A DNA stretch of 64,000 bases from Gammaproteobacteria bacterium. Its GTDB lineage: Bacteria; Pseudomonadota; Gammaproteobacteria; JAJDYQ01. The notes beneath the pieces are model-generated. The model did no database searches, was not told the origin of the DNA, and saw nothing but the letters and a program-made list of their open reading frames with translations. The translations under genes were made by a program, and so were the position numbers. The stretch covers positions 1,424,565 through 1,488,564 of the forward strand of contig OY759969.1 of NCBI GenBank assembly GCA_963662865.1, in the 5' to 3' direction. Shown one piece after another: positions 25,041 through 45,973 of the stretch (position 1 is the first letter of the stretch; each line of letters starts with the position of its first letter).

Positions 25041-25180
25041 GGCTAAGTGGGTAGGTGCAGGAATTAAGCGTATAATCACGCGGTTACATACGGTGGGTGA
25101 CCTGAGGTTTGTTAACCCCCATCGTTTTTGTAGTAATTGCGGGTACGCATCAGTTATCCAGAACGATGCGTGTAAGGAAT

Positions 25181-25267: not shown

Positions 25268-25294
25268 TTTTGAAAAACGTCGAAAGACGACGAG

Positions 25295-25331
25295 AAACCG
25301 CTTAAGACTATGATTTTAAGCGGTTTTTTGC
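25295..25331 (+). terminator. Rho-independent terminator after tRNA-Leu
   Basis: AAACCGCTTAA...TTAAGCGGTTT hairpin followed by TTTT. Confidence 0.5.
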
Positions 25332-25724
25332 CTATTGTTTTGCATCGTAGCCCCTCATAGTTTCCGTTAGCCTCAAAAATGGAGCGCGTATGGAGCGTGA
25401 GTGGAGCGCGTTTTACCATCTACAACCACTCACATAACAGGCTATCTAACGCTCCACACTGATTTTAAGTATCCGACTGTATGGCCCCACTTAGGGGTTC
25501 CAGGTTGGGCAATGGAATACTGATTACCAAATAGCCTCACTCGATTATCTATCTTTCAGAGGCAGTTGAAGCATATGAGATGTCAGGGAAACGATGATTC
25601 CATTTTATCGATAAACTTCTGGACATTATTCACCTCCCAATTCCTAGCGATATAATAACCAGCACCATCGAAGCTAATTTCAGATTCTTTATTGAAGCGA
25701 TATTTAGAATACCTTTTCTCAGTT

Positions 25725-28700
25725 TCAGTCATCTAACCCAGATAATTTCTTCCACACTGTTTGGTAATCCCCCCCAGACATAGTTGCGGATTGTGGCTTC
25801 ATTCTCTCCCAGTCGGATGCCTGCAAAGACTTCAGATACTCATTAGCAGTAGCGGGAGTAAAATTATCTGAATGAACCCTCTTAAACTCGGCTCCAGTTG
25901 CTTCGGCAATACTTCGAGGAACAGAACTCATCCTCATTAATACTGCTTCTTCGGTTTTTACGCCGTGATAAATCATCGCTGGGAGATTGTTCAGGCTTCT
26001 TTTTTCCTCATCCGACATCTCTTCAAAATTAAGACCTGAAGTAGGCATTTTACTTAAAGCGGACAAACCCCAAGCGGCATTATTTGCGAGGTCTCGGTAT
26101 ACCGCTTTACATGCCTTTGAAATCCTGGTTGTAAAGTCACCACTGTCGAAAAATGAATCTGCAATATCAGCCAAACTCTTTCCAGATACCCACGCTTGAG
26201 TAATATCAGCTAGTTTTCGATAACCTACGCCATCTTTTGTTAATTCCTCTAAACTAGATTTGAGCTGAGGAATTTTCATCATGATTCCCATTAAGTCTGG
26301 TAAAGTTTTGCTATTACTATCACCAAACAGACTAGACGGCTCCCAGCTCTCAATTGACAAATTATTTTCTAATTGCCCCATTCCCAATAATGCAGAACGA
26401 ACCCCTTCAGGAGAAAAACCAGTTGCATCTGCTAGCGTTGCATTTTCAGGATACTCAGCTAAAACTTTTACATAACTTCGAGTGGCCTTTAAAAGTGCTT
26501 CGGCTTTTTGAAAAGATGAGTCGTCACTTTTTGCGCGCAGCGCACTAAATCCTAAAGTATTACGTAGCGTTTGCTCTGCCTCTCCGATAACAATATCTAA
26601 ATTGCGTTTTTCATTCCATAGGTGAGCGATATAACTACGAAAATCCACCCACTGATCTTCCTTTATTAACGTGGAAAGATTGTTTAACTCACCAGCCTTA
26701 TACAATTCATCAAGTAATGACTCCATTCTAGAAATTAACTCTTCAATCGCTTCATTAACATAGTCTCGCACTGCTTTTTGATCCTTACCTGCTGCAATAC
26801 CTACAACTCCAACACTATTTTGACCTATTCGTCCAGTGCGCCCAGCTAAATTCCAGAAAGCGCGGTGAGACATTTGGATACCGTAAGGGTATTTCGTGGT
26901 CGCCAAAAACACGGATGAAACTGGAAAGTTCAGACCTTGCGCAATCGTTGTAGTCGCGCACATCACACGTATATGGCCAGCTTCAGTTAGCCATTCTATT
27001 AAGGCTAAGACTTCTGCTGGCAGCCCCGCATGATGAACTACAACACCTTTGGACAGCATATTAATAAGTTCGAACTTCTCACTAACTTCTGTTGCCAAGA
27101 ATCGTTGAACAAGTGCCACTTCACTTGGTACTTGTTCAAAAGCCGGAAGCTCTGCGGCTACCTTTCTGGCGATACTCCATACATCAGGTATTGTTTGAGC
27201 AATTGCTATACTCGTGCCGCGATCCGAAAATGATTTCGCCATGGCGACAGCTTGTGCAGAGAGGCTTCCTTGAACCTTTGAGTAATTAAGCTTTTTGAGT
27301 GGTCTAACGCCGTTGATCTCATGTATCCCATGTAAATGAATAGTTCTTTGAGTTGTTGTCAGTGTTTCGAAATTAAGATGCCAGTCGCCTTGCCTTTCAC
27401 CTCTATCAGAATCAAAAGGTGTGACATTAAACATACCAACCAATCTCTCGTTAGGCTGCCATGCTGTGGTCCCCAGGCTTATTGTTCTGCCTCTATCAGC
27501 GGCTAACCACTGCGCCAAATCTTCTGTATTAGGAACAAAAGGCATCATTAACAGGAAATTTGCACTTGGAGATTCCTGTTTGATCGTTGCAAGAAGCAGC
27601 TCTATTCTTAGACCGCGCTCTTTATCCTCTATGTTATGGGCTTCATCCATGACGACTAATGCCAGAGGTCGAGCAATTTTCTTGTTGCGCATTACAAGTT
27701 GTAATTTTTCAGGAGTCGCGACCAATACTTGAAATGCTTGCCGTTCTCTCAAAAGAGTTTCCTCAAATGCATCAACCTCAATAGCTCCCGACAATTGTTC
27801 TACATGAATATTTAGAGGCTCAAAATCTGAACGCAGCCTTCTAGTGATCTGCGAAACCAGAGCGCGAGTAGGCGCAACATAGGCTACCCAGCCATTATCT
27901 TGATCAAACTGGTTCAGGGCTTGCAACATCCTAAATTGAGACAGCTGTGTTTTCCCACTGGATGTAGGCAGATCTACAACAACCGCTCTACTTGCCTGAT
28001 CTAGTAATCCTTGCTCCTGTAAAGCTGCTCTTTGCGGAGGAAAAAGCTCAAACATTCCTCGATGCTTTGTTACGTGATTAACAAATTTCTTCACTCTTGA
28101 ATTCACAGTATGAGCAACCCACCATAAAGAACCTTCAGCCATTTTCCGACTAGCTAAATGAAGCCAATTCAGTACCATTTCTAACTGTACATCACGGCTA
28201 CTTTTAGCAGCTTTTACTGCTGCCTCAAAATGTTGATCAAGTTCTGAATCAATGGCTGCTGGCTCACCTTGCAGCATATAAACAGCAAGTCTTTCAGTGG
28301 CTTTGGCAAAATGGTATAGGGCAATCAATTGTAAAGCGGTAGCTTTACCCGCTGCTCCAGACTGCTCTTCGACCAGGAGAGATTCAAAGCGGGATTGATC
28401 ATTACGTAAACCAAGAACTATTTCTGATACTTTGCCTAAATCATCCCAGTCACTCTTCCGAAGCAGTCGAATCCAGCAGTCAAACAGTCTGTACAGCAAT
28501 CGTTTATCCCATTGAACATCGTCCACAGGAGGAATTGCAATTGCTTTTGGGAAATCAGAAAACCAGCGTTTTAAATCCGTCCAGCGTTCACCACAATATG
28601 CTAGCCCTGCTAAATGAAGCACATTAAATATTCGATAATCTGTATCGGTTGGAATTGGCAGAACGCGATATAAACCAAATGCCCTATAAGCGCCAGCTTG

Positions 28701-28976
28701 AGCTTGGTTTTTTAGCTTGACATTCTCTTCGCCTGTTGACGAGCGCAATACTGCTGATAAACCCTCTATGGCGGCCATCTCATAGGCTGTTGCAACATTT
28801 TCTATCTCTTTATCTGTTACCTCTGACAGATAAGTATTGTGCAGAACCTGATCTAATGCTGCTCTAATCAATCGTTCATCCGCGGCTTCAAATACTCTGT
28901 CTTGTATTTCACTAGGTATAGCTTGTACAGCCCAGTGCTGATCTATATTTTTGAGATCATGCAAGGTAAGTGTCAT
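25725..28976 (-). CDS. Ski2/Hel308-like SF2 DEAD/DEAH-box helicase, 1083 aa (HamB-like candidate defense helicase)
   Basis: Walker A (VVVDLPTSSGKTQLS), DEAH (VVMDEAHNIED), and HHAGL...ATTTIAQGLNFP motif V/VI typical of Ski2/Hel308-type helicases. The helicase core is flanked by ~320-aa N-terminal and ~350-aa C-terminal regions of unknown function. Its start overlaps the stop of the upstream 277-aa gene by 4 nt. The region is AT-rich. Confidence 0.6.
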   Translation of the reverse strand: MTLTLHDLKNIDQHWAVQAIPSEIQDRVFEAADERLIRAALDQVLHNTYLSEVTDKEIENVATAYEMAAIEGLSAVLRSSTGEENVKLKNQAQAGAYRAFGLYRVLPIPTDTDYRIFNVLHLAGLAYCGERWTDLKRWFSDFPKAIAIPPVDDVQWDKRLLYRLFDCWIRLLRKSDWDDLGKVSEIVLGLRNDQSRFESLLVEEQSGAAGKATALQLIALYHFAKATERLAVYMLQGEPAAIDSELDQHFEAAVKAAKSSRDVQLEMVLNWLHLASRKMAEGSLWWVAHTVNSRVKKFVNHVTKHRGMFELFPPQRAALQEQGLLDQASRAVVVDLPTSSGKTQLSQFRMLQALNQFDQDNGWVAYVAPTRALVSQITRRLRSDFEPLNIHVEQLSGAIEVDAFEETLLRERQAFQVLVATPEKLQLVMRNKKIARPLALVVMDEAHNIEDKERGLRIELLLATIKQESPSANFLLMMPFVPNTEDLAQWLAADRGRTISLGTTAWQPNERLVGMFNVTPFDSDRGERQGDWHLNFETLTTTQRTIHLHGIHEINGVRPLKKLNYSKVQGSLSAQAVAMAKSFSDRGTSIAIAQTIPDVWSIARKVAAELPAFEQVPSEVALVQRFLATEVSEKFELINMLSKGVVVHHAGLPAEVLALIEWLTEAGHIRVMCATTTIAQGLNFPVSSVFLATTKYPYGIQMSHRAFWNLAGRTGRIGQNSVGVVGIAAGKDQKAVRDYVNEAIEELISRMESLLDELYKAGELNNLSTLIKEDQWVDFRSYIAHLWNEKRNLDIVIGEAEQTLRNTLGFSALRAKSDDSSFQKAEALLKATRSYVKVLAEYPENATLADATGFSPEGVRSALLGMGQLENNLSIESWEPSSLFGDSNSKTLPDLMGIMMKIPQLKSSLEELTKDGVGYRKLADITQAWVSGKSLADIADSFFDSGDFTTRISKACKAVYRDLANNAAWGLSALSKMPTSGLNFEEMSDEEKRSLNNLPAMIYHGVKTEEAVLMRMSSVPRSIAEATGAEFKRVHSDNFTPATANEYLKSLQASDWERMKPQSATMSGGDYQTVWKKLSGLDD

Positions 28977-29806
28977 TGCTCATCCCCACGCAAAGCCTCT
29001 TGTGCTTTGTCTTTCAATAGAGAAATAGCGTTCTCGGGAAAATATAACGCATAAAGCGAGATACTAGTTAAGTCAGGGCAACCATTCGCTAGAGATTTCG
29101 CACAACATGAAAGGTCTGATTCATTAGGTTCTATATCACGAATGAGAACTCCGAATATCGCAACATCTCTAAGCGCAGAGCTTAAATACCGCTTTGTAGC
29201 GCTTTTAAACATATACCACCATGATGCGTTTATGGCGTGATGCCCTAGGTACCGAATCAGGCTTTTCTTTGTCCGATGAGAGTCTCTCAACCCTTCAAGC
29301 TGGTTTTTTAACCCTGTTCGACTGTACATAACACGAGGCGGAGAATGTTCATCACTCGATGTTTTTACTTCACCAAAGGCAAATCTGTAGGGATTTTCAG
29401 TATCGTCTGTCTCTTGAAAGCCTGTCAAATCTGCCCCAGCAGGGCTAGCTTCTGGATTTTTCAGGTCTCTGCCCGTTGGCCAAGGAAAAGTACAATTATT
29501 ATGATCGGCTACATAAGCTTCGGCTAGGGCTTCACCTACCAGCCAATTTTTGGGTTCTTGCTCTGCCTGCAACAGCTGACTGATTTGTGCTGGTTCAAAT
29601 TCAGTGGGGGCCAGACCAGCAAGCATGTCATTTAGTTCAGCAGTTCCTGTAGTATCAAGCAGCAAATCTTTAACGGCGCCATTGATTGCCCCATCTAGCT
29701 GCTCTTCATTATAGGCCAGCCCTCGTGCAATGACGGGCGTGCTGTCCACACTATAACTAGGCGTTGCTTCAGGTATGAGCATGTGAATAAGTCCTTTTAG
29801 TTTCAA
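28973..29806 (-). CDS. Hypothetical 277-aa protein translationally coupled to the downstream helicase (HamA/DUF1837-like candidate; possible PD-(D/E)xK fold)
   Basis: No catalytic motif can be assigned with certainty. A candidate acidic-x-Lys element (DD...FAFGEVKTS) could be a PD-(D/E)xK core. Gene size and order (small protein then large helicase, overlapping) match Hachiman HamA-HamB. Confidence 0.35.
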   Translation of the reverse strand: MKLKGLIHMLIPEATPSYSVDSTPVIARGLAYNEEQLDGAINGAVKDLLLDTTGTAELNDMLAGLAPTEFEPAQISQLLQAEQEPKNWLVGEALAEAYVADHNNCTFPWPTGRDLKNPEASPAGADLTGFQETDDTENPYRFAFGEVKTSSDEHSPPRVMYSRTGLKNQLEGLRDSHRTKKSLIRYLGHHAINASWWYMFKSATKRYLSSALRDVAIFGVLIRDIEPNESDLSCCAKSLANGCPDLTSISLYALYFPENAISLLKDKAQEALRGDEQ

Positions 29807-29835
29807 TGCTACTGATGGAAAAAATGTATATTATT

Positions 29836-31053
29836 TCAAGCTATTCCTTGAGCCAATACAGCTTTTTTATGGTCATATACATGATCAGTTATACTGCCAT
29901 CTTTAATCTTTTCCACCACCTCATCAATAATAAAGAGCGGCACTAAAAACCATTCTTTGGGTGAAACAGGATTTCCGAATCTATCATCAATGGTTATATC
30001 TAGCTTTGCATTTTCAAAGAACCTGTGAAGAAGATTTTCCAGCTTTACTCGATTTATATTGAATAACTCGTAGGTTGCGACCACCTCTACATCAGCCATC
30101 AAAAACGTAGGATCAACCTTTGCATTTGCAATACGCTTTTCAACTTCTCCACCCGTTACACCAATTTTATGAATAACATCCCGACTTTTGTTCACAACCG
30201 GATGGTCTAGTTTGCTCCTCAGAACATAGATTGTTCCGCTCTCAGCGTCATCTTCACCAATTACATCATCGAATAATGACCCCGCTGAAAGAGAAACAAT
30301 TCTACGGCCAGCCTCATCTTCGTAGAGCGCCTTTTGAAGCGAGCGTAAAAGTAAATCACTTTCTGTACGGTTGTCATAAATTACGCGCAGCCTGTAGTCA
30401 TTCTTATCAAAGCCGTGATTTCGCTCTTTACTGAATTCAGCGACATATGCCTTTTGCCCATTGACTATAAACCAATCACCTTGCTCGATTTTCGCCATGT
30501 AATCACGATCTTTTTGATCTTTAAGCAACTGAGCTTCCACAAGCCCATGCTTTAAATCACTTTGAACCTTATCGAATAACGGTTTGAACTTGTCAAAGTC
30601 TTCGCAAGGAGTACGGTTTGCTATTTCTTCTGCCGCTTTTTTGTCTGCTTGAGACTTCACATGTTTCAGGTAAGTGATATCACCTTCTTTAGGTGCTTCG
30701 ACACCTAGCTCTGCCAATAACTCTTCATCTGTATTGTATTCGGCAGGCGGCTCAGCTACTAGCAAACCTCCAGCTAAAAGCCCTTGATGGTCAGTTTCTT
30801 CAACAAGATTTCGACACCCTTCCTTCTTTCGAATCTGATCAAGCCTTGTGGCGTACAAGCGTTCAAAGATATCTTTGTTCTCACCATGCTCTGGAGCATG
30901 CCCATGTTCTTCTACGAACCGCTGTATTTCCTCAAACCCTGCAATAATTCGCTCTTCTTTTGGTGTTCTGGCCGTTTTTTTCTCTTGCTTGATTTCTACA
31001 CCAAGCTCAGCCAACAGCTCTTTCTTGGTTTTACTTTGCTTTGCCTCAGCCAT
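29836..31053 (-). CDS. T5orf172 (GIY-YIG-like) domain protein, 405 aa (YeeC-like)
   Basis: The C-terminal domain carries the T5orf172 signature: TIYVLRS...IHKIGVTGGEVEKRI...LENLLHRFF...SPKEWFLV. The N-terminal half has two copies of an (E/K)ELLAELGVE-containing helical repeat. Its start overlaps the upstream helicase stop by 8 nt. Confidence 0.7.
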   Translation of the reverse strand: MAEAKQSKTKKELLAELGVEIKQEKKTARTPKEERIIAGFEEIQRFVEEHGHAPEHGENKDIFERLYATRLDQIRKKEGCRNLVEETDHQGLLAGGLLVAEPPAEYNTDEELLAELGVEAPKEGDITYLKHVKSQADKKAAEEIANRTPCEDFDKFKPLFDKVQSDLKHGLVEAQLLKDQKDRDYMAKIEQGDWFIVNGQKAYVAEFSKERNHGFDKNDYRLRVIYDNRTESDLLLRSLQKALYEDEAGRRIVSLSAGSLFDDVIGEDDAESGTIYVLRSKLDHPVVNKSRDVIHKIGVTGGEVEKRIANAKVDPTFLMADVEVVATYELFNINRVKLENLLHRFFENAKLDITIDDRFGNPVSPKEWFLVPLFIIDEVVEKIKDGSITDHVYDHKKAVLAQGIA

Positions 31054-33097
31054 TACTTTCCTCCATCACTTTACGTTGAAGGAAGGCAATACCTTCTGCC
31101 ATACGCTTTTCCCAAGGATCAGCTGCGGTGATCTCCGGTAAGCGCCCACGCTCCTTTTTGAACTTCAAAGCTCGTTCTGCAAGCTCCCGTGCCTCTTCTT
31201 CGGTAAGATTGATTTTTTTTGCTGCAATAACAGCAGCCACCTGCTTTAAGCTATCTTCAGTCATTGCTTTAGCGAGAATTGCATAGGCCTCGCTGAATGG
31301 ATTGATTCGGTCAATTAAATCAATGTCCAGATCAGTCACATTCATAGCATATTTTCTTACGCCGTCGATAAAGGCAGTACTGCCCCCACGCTCAATATCA
31401 TCATCTTGGCTAGCAATTTCTTTGGCTTTTTGAGTAAGGTTAAGCGCAGCAACAGCATGCTGCCTTACAGCCTCCTGATCTTCCGCATCTAGTTCTGGGT
31501 ATTTATCTTTAACGATTTTCCCCATACGTAACTGCGTTAATTCTTCAGGCACCATCTCTTCGTCAAACAGGCCTCGCTCAAGAGCGTTTTTGTCTTGAAC
31601 GAAAGCGGTAATTACTTCGTTCAAATCTTCCTGACAGATTCGCTGTGCATCTTTGCTTTTAGGCTCGAACAAGCCATTTATCTCTATCTGGAACTGCCCT
31701 GTAGAGGGGTTAAATCCCACATTATTGCCATTCGGATCATAACCATTCTCACCGTAGTCAAAGCCTTCTGCGGGGGTTCCTTGGCTATTTTTGGGTGTGA
31801 AGTTAAATTTAGGCGCTAACACCTGTTCCATAAGGAGGCTGGCAGCAATCGCTTTTAAAGTATCGTTAACTGCATCAGTGACAGCTTCCTCTGAAGCATC
31901 TGGCTCTGCAATCAAGTTAGTAAATCGAGAATGGGTTTTACCTTCAGCATCACGGGTTGCTCGACCGATAATCTGTATAATTTCAGTAAGGCTAGAGCGG
32001 TAGCCAACGGTTAGGGCATGCTCGCACCAAATCCAGTCAAAGCCTTCCTTCGCCATACCTAGCGCGATAATAATGTCGACATGATCTCGATTGCTTTTGG
32101 CTTCAGGAAGTTTTAACGAAGCGGAAACCTGATCACGCTTTGATGAATCATCAACCAAATCCGCTATCTTGAGTATTTTGCCACTTGTTGTTTTTACTAA
32201 TTGGAATCCAGTATCTAAATCTACACCCTGCCACTCGCCAAGCTCATCAATAATATGCTCAACTTCCGTGTTTTTACCACGCTTGGTGCTCTCACGAGAA
32301 TTCACATTGGGGATATGAATGATGGTTTTTTCGTTCGGGTCTAATACGTTCAAAATATCATCTGCGTATGAGTCGGAATAAAAGTAATACCCAATATCCA
32401 AGGTTTTTAGATATTCATAACCGTTAAGCTGTTCGTAGTAGGTATACGTGACCGTATCAAAGTTAGCTTCATCCTGTGGCGAAAGAACAGCTTTTGCATC
32501 ACCTCTAAAATATGAACCTGTCATTGCGACGAGATGTACTTTGTCACGGGCGATAAATTGCCCTAAATGAGCGCCGAGCTTATTGTCTGGGTTAGCGCTA
32601 ACATGGTGAAACTCATCTACGGCGATCAGGCAATCATCAAAGGCAGGCACGCCCAGGCGATCTACCGCAAAACGAAAGGTCGCATGGGTGCAAACCAATA
32701 TTTGATCATCCCCATCAAGAAAGACTTTTACTGAGTTGACTTTACCGCCACCTTCTCCGGGGGAATTACACAAATTCCATTTCGGCTCGACACTCCAATC
32801 CCAGTAGAACCCAAAGTCCGAAAGCGGCTCATTGTTAAAGCTGGCACCAATGGATTTTTCAGGAACTACGATAATGGCTTTTTTAACGCCTTGATTATTG
32901 AGCTTATCTAAAGCCACAAACATCAAAGCACGGCTCTTACCAGAAGCAGGGGGAGACTTGATAAGTAGATATTGCTCACCACGCTTTTCGTAAACGCGCT
33001 CTTGCATCACCAGCATACCTAGTTCATTGGGTTTTTTAGAACTCCCATTGCTGGCATAATTAACAGATACTGAGGGTATAGATTTATGTTCCGTCAT
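31046..33097 (-). CDS. SF2 DEAD/DEAH helicase, type III restriction Res-like (YeeB-like), 683 aa
   Basis: Walker A (SPPASGKS), DEFH (AVDEFHHV), QIIGRATR motif VI, plus a ~230-aa C-terminal extension. It lies between the methyltransferase and the T5orf172 gene with short gaps or overlaps. Confidence 0.75.
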   Translation of the reverse strand: MTEHKSIPSVSVNYASNGSSKKPNELGMLVMQERVYEKRGEQYLLIKSPPASGKSRALMFVALDKLNNQGVKKAIIVVPEKSIGASFNNEPLSDFGFYWDWSVEPKWNLCNSPGEGGGKVNSVKVFLDGDDQILVCTHATFRFAVDRLGVPAFDDCLIAVDEFHHVSANPDNKLGAHLGQFIARDKVHLVAMTGSYFRGDAKAVLSPQDEANFDTVTYTYYEQLNGYEYLKTLDIGYYFYSDSYADDILNVLDPNEKTIIHIPNVNSRESTKRGKNTEVEHIIDELGEWQGVDLDTGFQLVKTTSGKILKIADLVDDSSKRDQVSASLKLPEAKSNRDHVDIIIALGMAKEGFDWIWCEHALTVGYRSSLTEIIQIIGRATRDAEGKTHSRFTNLIAEPDASEEAVTDAVNDTLKAIAASLLMEQVLAPKFNFTPKNSQGTPAEGFDYGENGYDPNGNNVGFNPSTGQFQIEINGLFEPKSKDAQRICQEDLNEVITAFVQDKNALERGLFDEEMVPEELTQLRMGKIVKDKYPELDAEDQEAVRQHAVAALNLTQKAKEIASQDDDIERGGSTAFIDGVRKYAMNVTDLDIDLIDRINPFSEAYAILAKAMTEDSLKQVAAVIAAKKINLTEEEARELAERALKFKKERGRLPEITAADPWEKRMAEGIAFLQRKVMEESNG

Positions 33098-33099
33098 GC

Positions 33100-35874: not shown

Positions 35875-35880
35875 CGAAAA

Positions 35881-37230: not shown

Positions 37231-37312
37231 CGCAAATCTCCGCTTGACTGCATAGACAGGCTCCTGCGAGCACTAATAAGCAGATGCGCAAACACCATAT
37301 TTACCAATTCTA

Positions 37313-40300
37313 TCAATGCACCGCTCCCGACTGAGCTGCCCACTTACTGTTATTAATAGCCAGATCAAGCGTCAGCTCGAATAGCGCGTCTCGCTTTTCC
37401 TTGAATAGCTCTTTGTCATAGCTATCCTCCGGAAGATGCTCATCGAGGACCTTGCCAACCCGATCTCTCACACGTAGACGGGTGTCACTGGTCTTATACC
37501 AATCCTGCACCAACACCTTCGGTTTCTCCTCGGTCAGGCGCTTCAGTAAAGCCTTGGCGGCCAGGCGAAGTGTTTGCTCCTCGGCCTTGGTCATCTTGTC
37601 TTTGCGGAGCAGGTCATAGATCTCGAGCTCATCTTCGGTGAGCCCTTCCCGGATGTGCCGCTCGTTTTCTTCTTTCAGGTCCTGCGCGAATTTCACCAGC
37701 TCGGCGAAGGCGGCATCGGCTGAGGTGCTGCCGGCGTTGTAGTTGTCGATGATGTCTTGCAGGCGTTCGGCAAAATCGCGGCGGGTGCGGTTCTGGTTGA
37801 GCATGTCATTAAGTTTTTTCTCAAGAAAGGCCCGGAGGTCGGCAATCTCAATGTTCTTGTAGCTAGCCTGTTTGAAGTCTTTTTTGAGCTTATCGAAATC
37901 GACTTTACTGAGATCCCAGCCCTGCCCCTTCTGCTCAATTTTGTAACCGACCTTGCCCTCTTTAACGCCCTTGAAGTCCGCATCATCAACAATCACGCTT
38001 TCATCTAGCAGTTCGTTGATCTGCTTGACGGCTGAGTCGATGTCCTGCTGCTCGATGATGCTGTCGACCACGCCGCACAGATACTGGAATACGACTACTT
38101 TACGGACCACCGGCTGGCCGAGTACCTCGGGCTTACTGGCCTCGTAGAGCGCTGAGATGGTGTTCTGATAAACCTTGAAAGACTTACGCCACTCATCTTT
38201 AGTCAACAGCTGATCAGCCCAGGTTTTGAACAGCCCTACTTTGGTGAAGATGTCACCGGTTGCCAACGCTTCATCAATATCGATGTCCCGCTCGGCACAA
38301 AAGACCGTGCCCTGTTCAATCGCTTCGTCGAGTAAGCGAAACAGTTCGTCTTTATCTTTCACCGGCGGATCGTCGGTACCTGCATCGCCCTGGCCGTAGT
38401 CCTTGATGGCCTTTTTCAGCCGCCCGATGACGCCGTAGTAGTCAACGATCTCGCCGTTCTTTTTCTCAACACCGTTAATTCGGTAGGAACACACACGGTT
38501 GGCTCGGGCGATGGTCTGCATCAGCGTGTGGTCTTTCTGCGGCTTGTCGAGGTACAGCGTTGACACGGTCGGTGCATCGAACCCGGTCAGCCACATGGCA
38601 CAGACAAACACGAGCTGCAGCGGGTGCTCGGGGTCTTTGAAGTTGTACTCGAGATCATGGCCGTGCTCATCGACGTGTTCCATGCGCTTGCGGTGCGGTC
38701 GCATGTCGAGGTCCTGCTCGTCGAACTTCTCTTCTTCGCCGTTCTCGGCACTGACGACTACGGCCATTTCGACCTTGCGCATATAGTCGATCGTCTTCTT
38801 GAGCCGGGCTTTATGAACTTCATCCTGTGACGTCTTAAGCTCGCCGCGCAGCTTCTTAATCTCCTGCTTCCATCGCAGCTTTACTTTGTCGTGCATCTTC
38901 ACCGCCGTGAACTTGTCCACGGCGATCACCATGCCTTTACCCAAATAACCCCGGCGCGGGAAGTGAAAGACGATGTCATCGGCGATGGTGTCCAGGCGGT
39001 CATCCCGCTTGATCACCTCGAGCTCGCTGGCGAACTTGCGCTCCAGCTTCTCCTGCTGGGCGTCATCGAGGTTCTCGTCCTCGAGAATCTCGCAGAACTC
39101 CTCGCTCAGGTCTTCGTTCTGGTTCAGCACCTTGGGCACACGCTTCTTATAAAAGAGTGGCACGGTGGTGCCGTCGTCCATCGACTGGCTGAAGTTGTAC
39201 TCAGAGACGTATTCGCCAAACCATTCGTTGGTCTTGCGGTCGCGGCCCAGCAATGGTGTACCGGTAAAGGCCAAATACTGGGCCTTGGGCAGAGCCGCCC
39301 GCAGGTTCTCGGCCAGTGACTTGTATTGGGTGCGATGGGCCTCGTCGACAATGACGATGATGTCGTCGCGATTGGACAGCAACGGATAGTCCTGACCTTT
39401 CGGCCAGCGAAATTTCTGAATCAGCGTAAACACCAGCCGCTTGTTCTGCCCGAGGAAGGTACGCATCTGCTCGCTGTCCTTCGGCTGTGCGGCATCGGAC
39501 TTTTTGACGGTGTTGGTGTTGAGGAAATTGCGGTAGATCTGACCGTCGAGATCGTCCCGATCGGTAATTACTACGAAACTGTAGTTACCCTGGCATTTGC
39601 GGAAGATCTTCCGCGCATAGAAAATCATCGAGAAACTTTTACCCGAGCCCTGGGTGTGCCAGAACACACCGAGCTTGCCGCCGAATTCCTCGCGGCGCAG
39701 GAATTTGTCGAAGCCCTTGTTCACACCGATGAACTGATGGTTCTGGGCGATGATCTTCTGCGTCTCTTTGTGATAGATGACGAAGTTCTCGATGTAGTCG
39801 AGCAGCTTGTCATGCGGACACAGGCCGGCGAGAAAACGCTCCGCGCTGGTGCCGTTCTCGCTGATCTGCTCGCGCTTGATCTTTTCCTTCTCGTCGTCGG
39901 GGCGGAGCCAGTGGAAGAAATGCTCCCACTCGGCCGTCAGGCTGCCGACGCGCGTTTCGATACCATTGGAGAACACACACAGCGCGTTGGCGAGGAACAG
40001 CTGCGGGATATCGGCCTTGTAGTTGGTCAGGTTGTCGTCGTAAGCCGAGCGCAGTTTGATGTTGGAGTTTTTCAGCTCGATGAACACCAGCGGCAGTCCG
40101 TTGATGTAGAGCAGAATATCCGGGCGCCGATAGCTCGCCTTGGCCGCCGCACTCGTGCTCTGAATCCACAACTGAGTGACGGCTAGAAACTGGTTGTGCG
40201 GTGAGGCGGGGTCATTGAAATCGATGACCTTGACTCGTTCCTTGCGGTTTCGGCCTTGCTCATCTTTGAACTCGACCCGCACGCCGTCGCGAATCTGGCC

Positions 40301-40588
40301 GTCCACCTCGCGATTGGCGGCAATCATGGACATCGCCTGACGCTTGTCGCACAGCTGTTTGAGTGCATCATCAATCGCGGATTCGGGGATGCCAGGATTC
40401 AACGCGATGGCCGCAGCCTTTAAGCGGTCGTGCAGGATGACATCGCGTTTGTCCTTGCGCCCGGACTTATCGTTGTTCAAGTCGGCGGGATCAGAAGTGA
40501 AGCAATTCAGCGTGTCGTAGCCATAATCATCACGCAGGCGTTGCAACATCGCCTGTTCGATATCGTCTTCCGATATGAAGTTAGGCAT
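37313..40588 (-). CDS. hsdR: Type I restriction enzyme R subunit HsdR
   Basis: 1091 aa. N-terminus MPNFISEDDIEQAMLQRL is typical of HsdR. It has a PD-(D/E)xK nuclease region, SF2 translocase motifs (TQGSGKS, DEAH-like VDEAHRTQ) and a C-terminal helical domain. Confidence 0.9.
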   Translation of the reverse strand: MPNFISEDDIEQAMLQRLRDDYGYDTLNCFTSDPADLNNDKSGRKDKRDVILHDRLKAAAIALNPGIPESAIDDALKQLCDKRQAMSMIAANREVDGQIRDGVRVEFKDEQGRNRKERVKVIDFNDPASPHNQFLAVTQLWIQSTSAAAKASYRRPDILLYINGLPLVFIELKNSNIKLRSAYDDNLTNYKADIPQLFLANALCVFSNGIETRVGSLTAEWEHFFHWLRPDDEKEKIKREQISENGTSAERFLAGLCPHDKLLDYIENFVIYHKETQKIIAQNHQFIGVNKGFDKFLRREEFGGKLGVFWHTQGSGKSFSMIFYARKIFRKCQGNYSFVVITDRDDLDGQIYRNFLNTNTVKKSDAAQPKDSEQMRTFLGQNKRLVFTLIQKFRWPKGQDYPLLSNRDDIIVIVDEAHRTQYKSLAENLRAALPKAQYLAFTGTPLLGRDRKTNEWFGEYVSEYNFSQSMDDGTTVPLFYKKRVPKVLNQNEDLSEEFCEILEDENLDDAQQEKLERKFASELEVIKRDDRLDTIADDIVFHFPRRGYLGKGMVIAVDKFTAVKMHDKVKLRWKQEIKKLRGELKTSQDEVHKARLKKTIDYMRKVEMAVVVSAENGEEEKFDEQDLDMRPHRKRMEHVDEHGHDLEYNFKDPEHPLQLVFVCAMWLTGFDAPTVSTLYLDKPQKDHTLMQTIARANRVCSYRINGVEKKNGEIVDYYGVIGRLKKAIKDYGQGDAGTDDPPVKDKDELFRLLDEAIEQGTVFCAERDIDIDEALATGDIFTKVGLFKTWADQLLTKDEWRKSFKVYQNTISALYEASKPEVLGQPVVRKVVVFQYLCGVVDSIIEQQDIDSAVKQINELLDESVIVDDADFKGVKEGKVGYKIEQKGQGWDLSKVDFDKLKKDFKQASYKNIEIADLRAFLEKKLNDMLNQNRTRRDFAERLQDIIDNYNAGSTSADAAFAELVKFAQDLKEENERHIREGLTEDELEIYDLLRKDKMTKAEEQTLRLAAKALLKRLTEEKPKVLVQDWYKTSDTRLRVRDRVGKVLDEHLPEDSYDKELFKEKRDALFELTLDLAINNSKWAAQSGAVH

Positions 40589-41921
40589 GGGCGGCCTCGG
40601 GTTCAGTGGTCTCTTCCTGCATGCTCGGCGGGAACTGTATGTCGAGGTCTTCCACCGAGAGCTTGCCGGAGATCAGGCGTGGGAGGAGAAGATCACGGGT
40701 TTGTGTTGCAACAGTATTTTCAAGTCCAATCTGATCTTTAAGATCCAGTATTGGCTTCACAGCATCTTCAAATTGCTGCTGAAGAGTAGCGGGAGGAGTC
40801 AACATCTTATGGTGTTTGAGAAAACTCTCAAACTGATAATTACTGATCCCTGTGGATTGAACTTGAAATATCCCGACGAGCCCTTGCTCATAAAACAACT
40901 TCAGATACTGCTGCATCAGATACGGCGAAACCTTTTGACGGTCGAATCGAATCAACTTACAGAAACTGGCTGGAATCACCGTTTCCGGAAGGGAGCTCAA
41001 AAGCGAACTAGATACTCGAACGTTTCGTCCAAGCAACTGATTCTTGCTACCACCAGATACTTCGAACACAAAATCATCTGGCTGCATGATGCGGGACTTG
41101 AGATTTGACGCCGTATGAAAACGAAACGGCATTGAAGACAAGTCCGCTCGCTGGACCTTTGGAATGTCTGTTCCGCGAATCACAAATGCCGACTCGCTGT
41201 ACCCAGATGTCTGATCCTCTTCACCCCAGCCCCCTCCAATGTAGTGCTCGATGAGGGCTCCCATGCTCTTCGGTTCCCAACCTTCAGGCACACCTTTGAC
41301 GAACTTGGCGGCTTGGTGGCCAGGGAAGCGCATGCGGACGAACCATTCGCGGTAGAGCTCCTCGGCCATCTTTTCGAGCAGGGCGATGCGGCGTTTGTTG
41401 GTCTCGATCAGGTCGTCATACGCCGACAGAATTGCAGCGATTCGTCGCTTCGCCTCTGGGCTGGGCGCTATTACCGGAACCTTACGTAAATCCGTTAACC
41501 CAACGAACTGCTGGCTGGTCCCAGTAAGGAAGGTGTCAAGAGCCGCCTGACCAATGGAGCTTGTAAGATAGTAGTATAACCACATACCGTCATCTCGGCT
41601 GCGGCTTTTGAATAACCCAATATTTTTGATCGCGAAATTAGGTCTATCTCGGACAAGCGCCATCTGACCGACGGTTCCGATCATTGAGAACAAGACATCC
41701 CATTGATCCACTTTGCTACGTTTATTAACCGCATCAAAATCAGCAGTGCTGATGTTGTAGGCGCCATCAAGTTTGATCTGACCTTCTTTTAAATTCTTGG
41801 ATGTAATGAGGGGATACCCATCATCTGCAGGCTTTGGCGTGTCGTGAGTCCCGTCCGCCACACGAAGACAAAAGTCGGACGACTTTTCCACAGTCCACCC
41901 AGCTGGAAGTACAGCTTTCAT
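40581..41921 (-). CDS. hsdS: Type I restriction-modification specificity subunit HsdS (two target-recognition domains)
   Basis: 446 aa. Its stop and start overlap hsdR and hsdM. It has conserved central and C-terminal coiled-coil spacer motifs (LPRLISGKLSV). Confidence 0.8.
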   Translation of the reverse strand: MKAVLPAGWTVEKSSDFCLRVADGTHDTPKPADDGYPLITSKNLKEGQIKLDGAYNISTADFDAVNKRSKVDQWDVLFSMIGTVGQMALVRDRPNFAIKNIGLFKSRSRDDGMWLYYYLTSSIGQAALDTFLTGTSQQFVGLTDLRKVPVIAPSPEAKRRIAAILSAYDDLIETNKRRIALLEKMAEELYREWFVRMRFPGHQAAKFVKGVPEGWEPKSMGALIEHYIGGGWGEEDQTSGYSESAFVIRGTDIPKVQRADLSSMPFRFHTASNLKSRIMQPDDFVFEVSGGSKNQLLGRNVRVSSSLLSSLPETVIPASFCKLIRFDRQKVSPYLMQQYLKLFYEQGLVGIFQVQSTGISNYQFESFLKHHKMLTPPATLQQQFEDAVKPILDLKDQIGLENTVATQTRDLLLPRLISGKLSVEDLDIQFPPSMQEETTEPEAAHA

Positions 41922-44002
41922 TCGTTGTTCGCCAGCTCTTGAACATTAGCGAGGATTACATCTTCCAAGCCCTTGGAAACCTGACTTATCGAGGCAAGGT
42001 CGTCACTCATTCTTACTAGGTCATCGATGAACTCCTCCTCCGTCTTACCGTCCTCCTCAATCACAACGCCGACATAGCGGCCCGGGTTGAGTGAGTAGTC
42101 CTGCTCCTTGACCTCGTCGAGATCAGCCAGTTTGCACAGGCCGGTAACGTCTTCGTATTTGGCCTCGGGGAAACGTTCCTGTAGCCAGTGGATGTGGCCG
42201 AAGAAGCTTTCGGCATTCTTAACCTCTGCATGCAGAGTTTCGAGGGCAGTCTTGAGGTATTTGGTGGCGCGATCAGACGTCTGGCGTTTGCCCGCCTCCT
42301 TGGCGTTCTCCGCAAGTGTTTTCTCGTGACGGCGCACAGACTTATCGATCTGCTTCAGACAGCCGTGCAGTTGAGTGAAGAAGGGATCGAAGGTGGTGCG
42401 CAGTGCCTGCTGGGCGGCGTTCTGCTTGTCAGCTGTCGTTTTACCACCGTTAATCTTTTGATAAGCGGCGTAAGCCTTCTGAAGCGAGTCGAGATCATCC
42501 CAAGTTTCTACCAGGCTGGCGACGGCGTCTTTACCCGTTTTGTCAGCGAGAACTTCTAAAATCTGTGCCGACACCGGCTCTACTTGAGATTTGTTCTCGG
42601 CGAGGCGTTTCATGCCCGCAGCGAAATAACCATCGATAAGGTTCAAGAACTCGTCGCGACGACCTTTGTGCAGGCGGCTGATGATGGCGATGTTCTGAAT
42701 CTGTTCCGCCGAGAACTCGCGATGGGCGCGATCGATCTGGGTGAATATGTTGCGGGCGTCGATGAACAGGATGCGATCGTCGGTCTTGCCCTTGTCGAAG
42801 AACCAGAGCGTGGCCGGCAGGGTGACGGTGTAGAACATGTTCGACGGCAGAGTAAGCATGCCGTAGATAAGACCCTTTTCTATGAGGGTCTGACGAATAT
42901 CGGCCTCTGAATGACGGGCATCGGAGGCGGAATTGGCCATGACGAGCGCGGCACGGCCAGAACCCTCTTTCAGCGAGGTGGCGAAGAGATTGATCCAGAG
43001 GTAATTGGCGTTGGGGACGGTTTCCTTGCCCTTGTCCGACTTTTTGGCCTTGGTTTTCTTGCGTGGGATACCGTATTCGTTGAAGCGCGGGTCATTCTCC
43101 ACGTCTGCAAGCGAGACCTCATCCACGTTGAACGGGGGATTGGCGAGCACGTAGTCGAACTTGCCGAGCGAATCAAAATGATCCTCGTAATAGGTGATGC
43201 CCTGCTTGATCTCGCCGCGCAGGCCGTTGACTGCGAGGTTCATACGGGCGAGCTTGACGGTTTCGCTCTCTTTCTCCTGCCCCGATACGAACACACTGGT
43301 ATCGGTGCCCTGCGCTTCCAGCTCCTTGCGGTGCTCTTCGATAAACTGCGCCGACTGCACGAACATACCGCCCGAGCCGCAAGCCGGGTCGAAGACCGTG
43401 CCGCCGTGGGGCTCGATGATCTCGACCATGAGCCGCACCACCGAGCGGGGCGTAAAGAAGGTGCCGCCGCCCTGTCCTTCGGCCAGTGCGAACTTGCCGA
43501 GGAAGTATTCGTAGATGTGACCAAAAATATCGCCGGTTGTGTGGTCCGGAATGTTGTCGAACTGCCGGAGCAAATCGAACGGCAGCGTCTTCATCTGCTC
43601 GGTGCGGGTGAGGCGGTGGTACTCGTCCTTCGGCAGGCTGCCTTCGAGCTCGGGCTTGTAGGTCTCGATGGACTCCATCGCCTCTTCCAGCGCCTTGGCG
43701 ATGTCCTGATCTTCGGGCAGATCGAGCAGGTAGCTGTAGCGGGCGTGACCCGGGAGGTAGAAACCACACTTGGCAATGGCGATTTCTTCGATCGGTTTCT
43801 CGCGACGGGTGCCTTTGAGCTTGTCGAACTCGGCCTGGATGGCTTTTTCATGCCGACGGTAGTTGATGTCGGCGAACTTGAGGAAGATCAGGCCGAGGAC
43901 AGGGGTGCCATATTCCGAGGCTTTGAGGTCGGAGTTGGCGCGGAGGTTGTCGGCGGCAGACCAGAGGTCGTCTTGAAGTTGTTTTAGTTGTTCCGGGGTC
44001 AT
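41918..44002 (-). CDS. hsdM: Type I restriction-modification N6-adenine methyltransferase HsdM (long form, 694 aa)
   Basis: HsdM_N domain, SAM motif (DPACGSGGMFV) and catalytic NPPF (VLANPPFN). Its start overlaps hsdS by 4 nt. Confidence 0.9.
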   Translation of the reverse strand: MTPEQLKQLQDDLWSAADNLRANSDLKASEYGTPVLGLIFLKFADINYRRHEKAIQAEFDKLKGTRREKPIEEIAIAKCGFYLPGHARYSYLLDLPEDQDIAKALEEAMESIETYKPELEGSLPKDEYHRLTRTEQMKTLPFDLLRQFDNIPDHTTGDIFGHIYEYFLGKFALAEGQGGGTFFTPRSVVRLMVEIIEPHGGTVFDPACGSGGMFVQSAQFIEEHRKELEAQGTDTSVFVSGQEKESETVKLARMNLAVNGLRGEIKQGITYYEDHFDSLGKFDYVLANPPFNVDEVSLADVENDPRFNEYGIPRKKTKAKKSDKGKETVPNANYLWINLFATSLKEGSGRAALVMANSASDARHSEADIRQTLIEKGLIYGMLTLPSNMFYTVTLPATLWFFDKGKTDDRILFIDARNIFTQIDRAHREFSAEQIQNIAIISRLHKGRRDEFLNLIDGYFAAGMKRLAENKSQVEPVSAQILEVLADKTGKDAVASLVETWDDLDSLQKAYAAYQKINGGKTTADKQNAAQQALRTTFDPFFTQLHGCLKQIDKSVRRHEKTLAENAKEAGKRQTSDRATKYLKTALETLHAEVKNAESFFGHIHWLQERFPEAKYEDVTGLCKLADLDEVKEQDYSLNPGRYVGVVIEEDGKTEEEFIDDLVRMSDDLASISQVSKGLEDVILANVQELANNE

Positions 44003-44037
44003 AATTTCTCTAATTCCACGGTCTTATTCATAGGCGC

Positions 44038-45876
44038 TCATACTCGCTCCGCAAGATCCCGCTCTAACCAAGCCGGATCCCAAATCTCTTCCGCGAGCTG
44101 GCGGTATAGCGCTTGGCGTGAGTCCATATCAGCTTTCTTGAAATCCTTGTGGGCCTTGAAGGGCAGCGCCGACTCCTTGATAAAGTGCTTAAAGCCCGGA
44201 TTGTGACTGTAAGCGCCTTCATGGAGGCTCCGCGCCAGCAGATTCTGACCGTTGTAGTGCTCCAGTTTTTTCATGTAGGGCAAATCGCCATAGCTGGCAT
44301 TGAAGCTCTTCGGCAACAGCAGGAGTCCGCCGATTCGATCCCGGTACTCCAAGAAATCCGCTGGATGAATAAATTCATCTGTGTGCCGTTCCGGCTGATT
44401 GGCCCAGATATGTTCGATTTCGTATCCGTTTTTGCCTTTACGCTGAATGTATTCGGGGTAGTGGGATGCTCCACCCGCTGAGGTTTCAATGAAGTCCGTC
44501 ATTCGCGCCAGCATCCTGTGAATCTGCTGCTTATTCATGCCGTGCATGCTAAATCGATCATTTGACGCGAATGTTTCCGTTTCGCTGGCCAGCCTCTTTT
44601 CAAGTAGCTCAACAAGTTCAGATGCCGATTTACTCCGAATCTCTTTGATCACCAGAAACATAGCGTACTGCAGGTTCGAGTAACTAATCGCCCGCCAATT
44701 CCACACGCGCCGCGCAATCAGGATATTCAGATATCTCGAGACGATCCGGAGCTTCTGGCGAATCTGGTCTTCCGAGTCCGCCATCTTGAGGGGCGCTAGC
44801 AAGACCGGATACTGCAGGGTGAAGTTGTTCTGCGCATTGAAGTGAATGCACTCGAGCCCTGCGGTTAACGCGTTAGCTGCCTCACGGACCTTTTTGTACC
44901 AACGGGCGTAGAACGAGAATTCATTCTGGATGAACTCCGCGAAATCCGAATCGGTCGCCAGCCCGAGGGCGTCCTCATGCGCGCGGACCCAGCGGTGAAA
45001 CTCGGTACCGATCAGATCGAAGTCCTGAGGCAGGGCGCCCCGCTTGCGCTCGCGAATGCTCTTAGCATGCTGACTGCGCAGCCAGGATTTAATCGCATCG
45101 GAGTCTTCCTCCTTGCCCAGGGTTTGCAGCTCGGCAATCATCTTGCGCCAGACCACGCTAGCCTGATTGCGTTTGTCCGGATCTGAGATATTGGCGAGCA
45201 AATAGCCCTTCAGCATATCGGTGGCCGTCAATGACAGGCCACGATCATTCATCGTCTCGAAGATCGTATAAGCGTCATCATCCGAGTACGCAGTGATCTC
45301 GACCAGATGCACGTTTTCGATCAGCCAATCCGTGAAATACGGCAAGGCCTGTTGCTCAAGCTCCTCGGGGAATTGATCCTCGATATCGCGATGGCGTGCC
45401 AGAATATTGGCGACGGATTCTGGCTGGTCCGCCTCATCGAACGGCGAACCGGTAAACAGCGCCTCCATGCAGTCGTTGCGCTCGGGGACATCAAGATTGA
45501 ACGAGCGTTTGCCGTACTTCTGCGAAAAAATCAGCTCGGCGAGCTGACCCTGCTGATTGGCGTCGTCTAACAGTTTGTGGAGATAGACGAGCAGTAAGGT
45601 CAGCGTGGTGAGGCGCTGCTGGCCGTCGATAATGAATTTCTGGCCGTCGCGGTCACTAATGATGATCGAGCCGAGAAAATAGTGGCCGTATTTTTCAACC
45701 TCTGAGCGTTTGTGGGTCGCGTCGTAGCTTTCCCGGAACTTCTCGACTAGATCATCGATCAGCTCTTGGACTTGCTTGGGCTGCCAACGGTATTCGCGCT
45801 GGTAGTAGTCGATGGCGTACTTTGAGCCACCGAGGAGTTTTCGGAGGTTTTGCGCGTCGCCGCGGATTTCTTTCAT
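44038..45876 (-). CDS. GmrSD-like type IV (modification-dependent) restriction endonuclease: DUF262 (ParB-like NTPase) N-domain plus DUF1524 (His-Me/HNH-like) C-domain
   Basis: DUF262 signature IIDGQQRLTTL near the N-terminus. C-terminal His-Me finger block GYEIEHIWANQ. 612 aa. It is first in the operon with hsdM-hsdS-hsdR (36-nt gap to hsdM). Confidence 0.75.
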   Translation of the reverse strand: MKEIRGDAQNLRKLLGGSKYAIDYYQREYRWQPKQVQELIDDLVEKFRESYDATHKRSEVEKYGHYFLGSIIISDRDGQKFIIDGQQRLTTLTLLLVYLHKLLDDANQQGQLAELIFSQKYGKRSFNLDVPERNDCMEALFTGSPFDEADQPESVANILARHRDIEDQFPEELEQQALPYFTDWLIENVHLVEITAYSDDDAYTIFETMNDRGLSLTATDMLKGYLLANISDPDKRNQASVVWRKMIAELQTLGKEEDSDAIKSWLRSQHAKSIRERKRGALPQDFDLIGTEFHRWVRAHEDALGLATDSDFAEFIQNEFSFYARWYKKVREAANALTAGLECIHFNAQNNFTLQYPVLLAPLKMADSEDQIRQKLRIVSRYLNILIARRVWNWRAISYSNLQYAMFLVIKEIRSKSASELVELLEKRLASETETFASNDRFSMHGMNKQQIHRMLARMTDFIETSAGGASHYPEYIQRKGKNGYEIEHIWANQPERHTDEFIHPADFLEYRDRIGGLLLLPKSFNASYGDLPYMKKLEHYNGQNLLARSLHEGAYSHNPGFKHFIKESALPFKAHKDFKKADMDSRQALYRQLAEEIWDPAWLERDLAERV

Positions 45877-45973
45877 TAATGCCTCTATCTTTTCAAGTGG
45901 CTTTCTGAAGATGGACTCTACTAAGTTCAGTCTGGTAAGAACATCCTGGTAAGAACATCGGTGAACAGGTCAA

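Follow-up and report, generated by a model that had tools for sequence, protein, structure and literature searches.

Islands that are carried into tRNA genes by an integrase include the P4-like satellites and the integrative and conjugative or mobilizable elements (ICEs/IMEs). The island described here occupies positions 25037-45888 (20,852 bp) of a 64,000-nucleotide stretch from a Gammaproteobacteria bacterium (GenBank assembly GCA_963662865.1, contig OY759969.1, positions 1,424,565 to 1,488,564 of the forward strand; we refer to the whole stretch as the window), and it is a strain-specific, horizontally acquired, non-self-mobile mosaic of defense genes. It resembles the integrase-mediated islands in being inserted in a tRNA gene and in its foreign composition and accessory cargo, has a breakpoint at the edge of the anticodon stem that is compatible with theirs, and differs from them in that there is no integrase and no flanking direct repeat, the tRNA fragment left behind is 5' and not 3', and the intact tRNA at the site is wholly foreign and not a hybrid. 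A second comparison is with the defense hotspots flanked by tRNA or transfer-messenger RNA (tmRNA) genes, many of them without identifiable mobilization, such as E. coli hotspot #37 (PMC10121019) and P. aeruginosa cDHS1/2 (PMC10250203), for which transfer by recombination in the conserved flanks has been proposed (PMC10121019, PMC10250203). Like these hotspots, the present locus holds variable defense cargo beside a tRNA between conserved genes, with sites that are empty in some strains and often no mobile element; unlike them, it has had its resident tRNA truncated and replaced by an incoming one, as seen against the one other strain compared.

Mosaic defense islands that are linked to tRNA genes and lack an integrase are already well documented, and every module of this one belongs to a described family or is a PADLOC candidate. 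The locus is a clean case, with both junctions exact to the base, of an insertion at a hotspot that destroyed the resident tRNA gene, presumably with rescue by the incoming tRNA, and it illustrates how modules (a lone gmrSD gene, a block of six genes) move as cassettes among unrelated contexts.

The empty site and the island junctions

The island is delimited by comparison with an ENA metagenome contig, L001, that was found through an exact-protein look-up of the flavin adenine dinucleotide (FAD) oxidoreductase, the link being confirmed also via CvpA; look-ups of the same kind with GmrSD, PDC-M23A, the MmeI-like protein and the amidohydrolase returned no match. The gene order in L001 is oxidoreductase, a 526-bp gap, amidohydrolase, cvpA and purF, the oxidoreductase and CvpA proteins are identical to those of the window, and the gap contains one tRNA-Leu(CAG) with its terminator and nothing else. 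In blastn the window matches L001 at 99.7% over 15208-25036 and at 98.8% over 45889-52000, with zero similarity between, and overall the flanks are ∼99.7-99.8% identical and collinear for 10 kb on the left and 6 kb on the right. Counts of single-nucleotide differences give a divergence of ∼0.2% up to each junction with no increase beside the island, and the divergence climbs only within a giant repeat-protein gene beyond 50.8 kb. Because the divergence is flat up to both junctions, these are the breakpoints of the event itself rather than the limits of a recombination tract that has diverged. The 20,852 bp stand in place of 96 bp of L001, namely the resident tRNA-Leu(CAG) from position 43 to its 3' end together with its terminator. 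An island present in the window strain at a site that is empty, with conserved flanks, in L001 is what is expected of a genomic island, and the empty site that a search of related genomes was proposed to find is in hand. The features at and around the two junctions are as follows.

24945-24973, plus strand: promoter-like site of the resident tRNA-Leu gene, TTGACA-17-TAGATT, sequence conserved in L001
24994-25036, plus strand: first 43 nt of the resident tRNA-Leu(CAG), left as a remnant that reaches the 3' strand of the anticodon stem and is identical to the intact tRNA of L001
25036/25037: left junction, inside the resident tRNA gene; divergence from the L001 tRNA begins after GGTGCTA
25037-25180: foreign spacer, 144 nt between the tRNA remnant and the tRNA of the insert
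25181-25267, plus strand: intact island-borne tRNA-Leu(CAG), called tRNA B here (ARAGORN; Rfam tRNA model, 54.8 bits)
25268-25414, plus strand: non-coding unit after tRNA B that recurs in metagenome contigs
45888/45889: right junction, 12 nt upstream of the gmrSD start codon
right flank: resident 30-mer CTTTTCAAGTGGCTTTCTGAAGATGGACTC
45932-45959: 14-bp sequence CTGGTAAGAACATC in two tandem copies, within resident DNA and 44 nt past the right junction; L001 has one copy

The limits thus differ from the 25268-45973 of the initial annotation, since the island starts within the resident tRNA and includes the intact tRNA gene. The 43-nt 5' fragment of the resident tRNA had been overlooked altogether; it shares 88% identity with the 5' portion of tRNA B and is the sole tRNA-derived repeat in the window, lying upstream of the intact gene. 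tRNA B, the only intact tRNA gene in the window, is 81% identical by blastn to the resident tRNA of L001 and has a different acceptor stem. As it differs from the resident gene and lies beyond the left junction, it belongs to the insert. An island at a tRNA-Leu(CAG) locus had been correctly recognized, and the idea that it is anchored at the terminator of that tRNA has to be given up, given that the 3' half and terminator of the resident gene were destroyed and the island brought a tRNA of its own. We also considered whether 24994 to ∼25080 might be a decayed hybrid tRNA; the T-arm region matches at just 10/14 positions, which is unconvincing. On the minus strand, 24933-25268 forms a 111-amino acid (aa) open reading frame (ORF) antisense to both the tRNA remnant and tRNA B (product with ...PRRGLEPP...), which is almost certainly spurious.

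In our view the locus is best explained, with reasonable probability, by replacement of the 96 bp with a foreign defense segment that carried its own tRNA-Leu(CAG), through recombination that was not site-specific, which appears the most likely route of entry. The segment would have come from the tRNA-Leu(CAG) defense hotspot of another gammaproteobacterium, and the loss of the resident tRNA would have been tolerable since the segment bore a working tRNA-Leu(CAG), the window covering 64 kb of the genome. tRNA B would then substitute for the destroyed gene, probably being transcribed from the retained resident promoter and stopping at its own terminator. At the other end the right junction lies 12 nt ahead of the gmrSD start, so that gmrSD-hsdMSR are without their own upstream region; these genes are probably read through from the resident oxidoreductase operon. 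The pieces with separate histories are the tRNA-Leu with its repeat unit, the six-gene block, a Phd/RelE-type pair, a nucleotidyltransferase (NTase) stub, hsdRSM and the gmrSD cassette, and the GC-rich half of the island may have arrived in the same event or by an earlier insertion just past the resident terminator.

A repeat unit linked to tRNA-Leu(CAG)

The unit that follows tRNA B contains a terminator hairpin (25291-25330), three degenerate repeats with a period of ∼10 nt, an A-run and three TGGAGCGYG repeats with a period of 11 nt (25380-25410), the last of these sets beginning 112 nt past the tRNA. A pattern scan for triple repeats of the TGGAGCGYG type yielded 67 metagenome contigs, about half of them unrelated simple tandem repeats; in ∼30 of the remainder the 3' end of a tRNA-Leu(CAG) lies exactly 116-117 nt upstream of the repeats. 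The usual architecture, found in most of these ∼30 loci, is AGACCA x2-3, terminator hairpin, TTGTC x3, A-run and TGGAGCGYGNN x3-9. Window positions 25181-25414 align to the unit loci at 72-76% with E down to 4e-40 (for example L043 11608-11841 and L024 4422-4600), the 144 nt upstream of tRNA B do not align to them, and the unit is absent from the resident locus in L001. Searches of Rfam with the tRNA region of the window and with the canonical unit gave no family besides tRNA. A megablast of the whole island against plasmids and phages returned the tRNA as the sole match, and a Halomonas match proved to be a tandem tRNA-Leu array without the unit.

Two types of unit locus can be distinguished. 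In the first a full tRNA is divergent from a gene that, as read from its N-terminal sequence, resembles rnr (RNase R). In the second just 23-33 nt of the tRNA 3' end precede the unit, as would be expected at the attR end of an island that had integrated into the tRNA, with what seems to be native DNA beyond; one of these loci runs on into genes resembling, again by N-terminal sequence, ppx-phoBR-pstS. Downstream of the unit, on the opposite strand, lies a gene for a 426-aa protein that is intact in L024 and reduced to variable C-terminal remnants in many loci. Among its best 120 clusters the protein is 80-99% identical, and the named sources are sulfur-oxidizing Gammaproteobacteria (Ca. Thiodiazotropha, Sedimenticola, Thiogranum, tubeworm endosymbionts); the contigs with the unit come from marine and sediment gammaproteobacteria. 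We read the unit as native chromosomal DNA of this sulfur-oxidizing clade because the 426-aa gene is conserved there, because the cargo truncates it and because the attR-like loci seem to lead into native DNA. The same observations (a highly conserved adjoining gene progressively truncated by cargo, and attR-like loci that seem to continue into native sequence) disfavor a mobile-element end, whether an att arm or a transposon end.

The defense cargo beside the unit includes ZacABC, BilD with a UvrD-like helicase, a type III restriction enzyme, an LmuB-like ATPase, JetD, whose neighbor we read as JetC (Wadjet), and a TIR-STAND protein, and an integrase fragment is found in only one of these loci. 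The unit thus borders a widespread and mostly integrase-less defense hotspot, of whose anchor the window island carries a diverged copy. With its three helically phased sets of direct repeats the unit could be, for example, a protein-binding platform that defines, and perhaps spreads, such a hotspot; if the anchor holds, it bears on how defense hotspots without recombinases are targeted.

Composition, mosaicism and routes of entry

The genes of the island, in window coordinates, are listed here.

25725-28976, minus strand: PDC-M23B, a HamB-like superfamily 2 (SF2) helicase (DEAD/Hel308-like), 1083 aa (PADLOC E = 0; HamB models 8e-65; Pfam DEAD, ResIII)
28973-29806, minus strand: PDC-M23A, 277 aa (PADLOC 6.8e-104)
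29836-31053, minus strand: YeeC-like T5orf172/MUG113 (GIY-YIG-related) protein, 405 aa (Pfam)
31046-33097, minus strand: YeeB-like SF2 helicase, 683 aa (weak Pfam DEAD, ResIII)
33100-35874, minus strand: DnmA/YeeA-like MmeI-family methyltransferase, 924 aa (Pfam MmeI_Mtase 1.5e-115, all five MmeI domains)
35881-36183, minus strand: chimeric helix-turn-helix (HTH) ORF, 100 aa (HTH_17 in residues ∼42-100)
36183-36437, minus strand: RelE/ParE-superfamily-like toxin, weak, 84 aa (HigB-like E = 0.0027; YafQ-family TIGR00053 E = 4e-4, below cutoff)
36437-36688, minus strand: Phd/YefM antitoxin, 83 aa (Pfam PhdYeFM_antitox, 34.1 bits against a cutoff of 29.8)
36997-37230, minus strand: plausible N-terminal stub of a nucleotidyltransferase, 77 aa (GS...DVDL motif; NTP_transf_2 E = 0.036, below cutoff)
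37313-40588, minus strand: HsdR, 1091 aa (Pfam HSDR_N, SWI2_SNF2, T1RH-like_C)
40581-41921, minus strand: HsdS, 446 aa (Pfam Methylase_S)
41918-44002, minus strand: HsdM, 694 aa (Pfam N6_Mtase 6e-79, HsdM_N)
44038-45876, minus strand: GmrSD-family type IV restriction enzyme, 612 aa (Pfam GmrSD_N (DUF262) and GmrSD_C (DUF1524) in one protein)

As had been noted from the letters, every large ORF over 25725-45876, between the tRNA and the oxidoreductase, is on the minus strand and is a defense or accessory gene. This orientation is not opposed to that of the surroundings, as had also been proposed, in that the flanks at 20299-24678 and 45974-61180 are on the minus strand as well and only the tRNA is on the plus strand.

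Both composition (GC, GC at third codon positions (GC3) and tetranucleotides) and enrichment in defense genes (by PADLOC and Pfam, PDC-M23, an MmeI-type IIG methyltransferase, type I R-M and GmrSD) mark the segment as a genomic island. The GC content is 0.437 over 25037-36688 vs 0.542 over 37313-45888, and GC3 is 0.33-0.40 in the AT-rich genes and 0.54-0.74 in hsd and gmrSD, with 0.44-0.58 in the backbone. Tetranucleotide frequencies of the AT-rich and GC-rich halves correlate with those of the backbone at 0.59 and 0.39, respectively (backbone pieces, 0.80-0.92); between the halves the correlation is no higher than 0.13. That the halves differ in origin is clear, and the bimodality that the initial annotation had described, including long antisense ORFs in the GC-rich half such as 42911-43987 (plus strand, 358 aa), is borne out by all three measures. 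The break had been put at ∼37 kb; GC3 and homology move it to near 36.06 kb, inside the HTH ORF, and bulk GC is patchy between 36 and 37.3 kb. Residues ∼42-100 of that ORF are 70% identical to the 60-aa product of the first gene of a block in Aurantivibrio plasticivorans, and the N-terminal 41 aa are of other origin. The ORF is therefore a chimera that marks an internal mosaic junction near 36055.

These differences bear on the number of events. It is quite possible, in our estimate only a little short of even, that the island accreted in two steps, gmrSD-hsdMSR and the NTase gene arriving first, just past the resident terminator, and a second piece of DNA (spacer, tRNA B, unit, six-gene block and toxin-antitoxin (TA) pair) later taking the place of the tRNA 3' half, its terminator and the left-hand end of the earlier insertion, thereby truncating the NTase gene. 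Such a history is compatible with replacement by non-site-specific recombination and concerns only how many times DNA came in. The very different halves (GC3 ∼0.36 vs 0.54-0.74, together with the low tetranucleotide correlation) speak for it, as do an NTase gene that is cut exactly on the side facing the AT-rich half and the further junction within the HTH ORF. Yet the sole comparator, L001, is without the entire island, no intermediate being seen; a donor hotspot could have acquired identical scars before everything moved in one transfer; and the TA pair, whose GC3 of 0.64 groups with the GC-rich half, lies between the NTase stub and the AT-rich genes, which fits poorly with a clean division into two pieces. 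The data accommodate equally well an accretion in steps at this site and the arrival en bloc of a mosaic assembled beforehand.

Several observations weigh against the explanation that we have set out for the replacement of the 96 bp. The comparison is with a single strain, and no intermediate forms were found. Neither L001 nor the 67 metagenome loci, plasmids or phages contain anything that matches the 144-nt spacer. The oxidoreductase stop is separated from gmrSD by 97 nt in which we detected no sigma-70-like promoter and no minus-strand terminator, so that read-through can only be presumed. The left breakpoint, at tRNA position 42/43, coincides exactly with the 3' edge of the anticodon stem, which favors an integrase. 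Finally, as regards the cargo, the dnmA-yeeB-yeeC cluster of B. subtilis protected against none of the three phages tested (PMC9973331).

An integrase-driven origin would have a tyrosine integrase cross over in the anticodon stem-loop of the resident tRNA, with the island's own tRNA-Leu as compensation, followed by deletion of the integrase, attR and the region upstream of gmrSD. The anticodon loop is reportedly one of the sublocations within tRNA genes at which integrases cross over (Williams 2002), which suits the left breakpoint; the right junction 12 nt before the gmrSD start looks like a deletion scar trimmed by selection, and relatives of the PDC-M23 genes ride in a V. cholerae island with a P4-type integrase. 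We nevertheless consider it unlikely. No recombinase domain turned up in Pfam among the large ORFs tested across the window, tblastn with the P4-type integrase of the related island gave a best E of 1.3, and the absence of a tyrosine or serine recombinase that had been noted from the letters is to this extent upheld. The search for att repeats that had been suggested came out the same way, the tRNA 3' end being unrepeated anywhere in the 64 kb when up to 3 mismatches in 17 or 25 nt are allowed. Neither an integrase gene nor an attL/attR direct repeat, the marks of an integrase element, is therefore in evidence, and neither a remnant of the former nor a second att copy was found in the 64 kb. 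Two events would be required, the deletion having to end within 52 bp past the resident tRNA, and the tRNA-proximal DNA of the insert is homologous to what is apparently native chromosome of another clade and not to an element arm. The 100-aa HTH ORF, earlier taken for an excisionase-type mobility gene, does carry HTH_17 but lacks, in the window, the integrase partner that an Xis/AlpA-type excisionase would have, and it is no sign of mobility; its homologue opens the defense operon of Aurantivibrio, and an HTH_17 gene is found at the analogous position in V. cholerae.

That the island is instead ancestral and was lost by deletion in the L001 lineage is highly improbable. Nothing specific speaks for it beyond the fact that deletions of islands are common, and L001 holds 96 bp (tRNA 3' half and terminator) that are missing from the window and hence cannot be derived from the window state by deletion, which all but settles the matter in favor of acquisition, as initially proposed. 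Both halves moreover have foreign composition, and a species-genome scan based on the amidohydrolase found four related species represented by metagenome-assembled genomes (MAGs; 75-84% aa identity), in which the scan showed no island, no synteny of the locus and no tRNA-Leu. Least probable of all is a chimeric assembly joined at the tRNA repeat, for which one may cite several single-base indels relative to L001 in the left flank, typical of long-read error in one of the assemblies, and against which stand a left junction at which a 43-nt fragment gives way to 144 nt of unique sequence, with no seamless tRNA/tRNA join, a right junction without any repeat, and flanks that are collinear with L001.

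Defense modules and neighboring genes

The genes for PDC-M23A and PDC-M23B overlap by 4 nt and are adjacent, as PADLOC specifies for its PDC-M23 candidate. Like Hachiman they form an overlapping two-gene operon in which the large protein matches HamB models (8e-65, the best model being PDC-M23B itself) and the small one has a D...EVK motif; unlike Hachiman, the small subunit matches no HamA (DUF1837) model among the PADLOC matches, and PADLOC lists PDC-M23 as a separate, unvalidated candidate. The name Hachiman-like of the initial annotation was thus broadly right and corresponds to PDC-M23A/B. PDC-M23A, searched together with its relatives (four homologues), has no Pfam family even at E ≤ 10, and its D125...E145-V-K147 motif is invariant in the four homologues, on which ground we regard it as a putative PD-(D/E)xK nuclease. 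To our knowledge no anti-phage activity has been established for PDC-M23.

Ahead of this pair in the direction of transcription lie the methyltransferase, YeeB-like and YeeC-like genes, co-oriented and in the same order and orientation as in the published dnmA-yeeB-yeeC cluster (PMC9973331), which confirms the YeeABC-like module first recognized from the ORF translations. The methyltransferase matches MmeI (PDB 5HR4) at 2.5e-140, the alignment starting only at residue 89. Its N-terminus cannot be aligned to MmeI, and inspection of residues 40-100 by eye for the motif D-X9-EXK revealed no ExK. Like dnmA(yeeA)-yeeB-yeeC of B. subtilis and its homologues in Vibrio crassostreae, which were reported to be protective (PMC9973331), the module has this gene order and orientation, and its N-terminal methyltransferase sequence, as far as it can be read by eye, would agree with theirs in the absence of ExK; unlike them, it is headed by an HTH_17 gene and is followed after 29 bp by the PDC-M23 pair, with which it has been co-transferred.

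The six genes (HTH_17, methyltransferase, YeeB, YeeC, PDC-M23A and PDC-M23B) are collinear in Aurantivibrio plasticivorans (Cellvibrionaceae), with nucleotide identities of 82% over 25735-33607 and 72% over 34091-36055 and protein identities of 70-91% (PDC-M23B 89%, YeeC 91%, YeeB 83%). The neighbors there are ArdA, a relaxase and MobC, with rimP-nusA-infB close by, and the block evidently travels as a unit; the block there includes no tRNA. The sole stretch of the block without nucleotide similarity to Aurantivibrio, 33607-34091, overlies the start of the target-recognition domain of the methyltransferase, which suggests a switch of specificity.

Elsewhere PDC-M23 pairs are found alone between housekeeping genes, in the integrase-carrying V. 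cholerae island and beside type I restriction-modification (R-M) genes. In 6 of 10 independent contexts PDC-M23A/B directly adjoin co-oriented restriction modules based on a methyltransferase, positioned after DnmA-YeeBC, after hsdR-M-S or between hsdM(S) and hsdR; in only one of the 10 do they stand alone. This distribution suggests a functional coupling of PDC-M23 to R-M modules and, if the adjacency holds, bears on whether Hachiman-like modules cooperate with R-M systems.

HsdR, HsdM and HsdS are all full length, and the Pfam domains of both the type I system and GmrSD are complete, so that this part of the first reading stands as it was. Defense genes are known within type I R-M operons, among them PrrC in EcoprrI and DUF262/GmrSD-type genes by hsd genes, and the present locus is similar in that gmrSD heads hsdMSR both here and in its closest relatives, with PDC-M23 inside or after hsd operons elsewhere. 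In JGI contigs the closest GmrSD homologue (89% aa identity) stands first in a type I R-M operon of a different build, and the nucleotide similarity (84.6% over window positions 44050-45877) ends at the ends of the gene, from which it follows that gmrSD moves as a single-gene cassette. Homologues of gmrSD at ∼70% identity occur across several phyla.

To judge by its protein families the cargo may provide a layered defense, with modules that would mark DNA with N6-methyladenine (m6A), namely type I R-M and DnmA-YeeBC, a GmrSD enzyme directed against modified phage DNA, and a Hachiman-like helicase-nuclease. A reading that joins the several strands, in which the island would be a transplanted copy of a hotspot, the repeat unit a functional DNA landmark and PDC-M23 a second-layer effector coupled to methyltransferase-based restriction modules, is speculative and we hold it to be rather doubtful.

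Between the two halves, the antitoxin of the type II TA pair is above its Pfam cutoff, and the adjacent toxin candidate has matches only below cutoff. The pair had been assigned to the YeeABC module and is not part of it: the otherwise collinear block of Aurantivibrio has no such pair, and the GC3 of the pair stands apart from the 0.33-0.40 of the AT-rich genes. Of the NTase remnant next to it, the ORF with its GS...DVDL motif is confirmed and the family match is weak; the stub is plausibly an internal scar.

Outside the island, two related MAGs have a tmRNA gene after the amidohydrolase, at a distance of ∼70 bp in L005 (10822-11254) and of ∼8.5 kb in L002 (10822-19656), which suggests an island at the tmRNA locus of L002. 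In the right flank of the window 51041-61180 (minus strand) is a single ORF of 3379 aa with a GC content of 0.65 and GC3 of 0.80, vs a backbone GC of ∼0.49, whose homologue in L001 has Calx-beta repeats. It is the only portion of the flanks in which the divergence from L001 rises sharply, and may be a giant adhesin-like gene that either evolves fast or is foreign. In the left flank a local dip in GC at 9401-11313 (plus strand) holds genes for a PIN7-domain protein (221 aa) and then a 372-aa protein with weak P-loop/NACHT-like matches, which may be a further small defense or TA-like pair.

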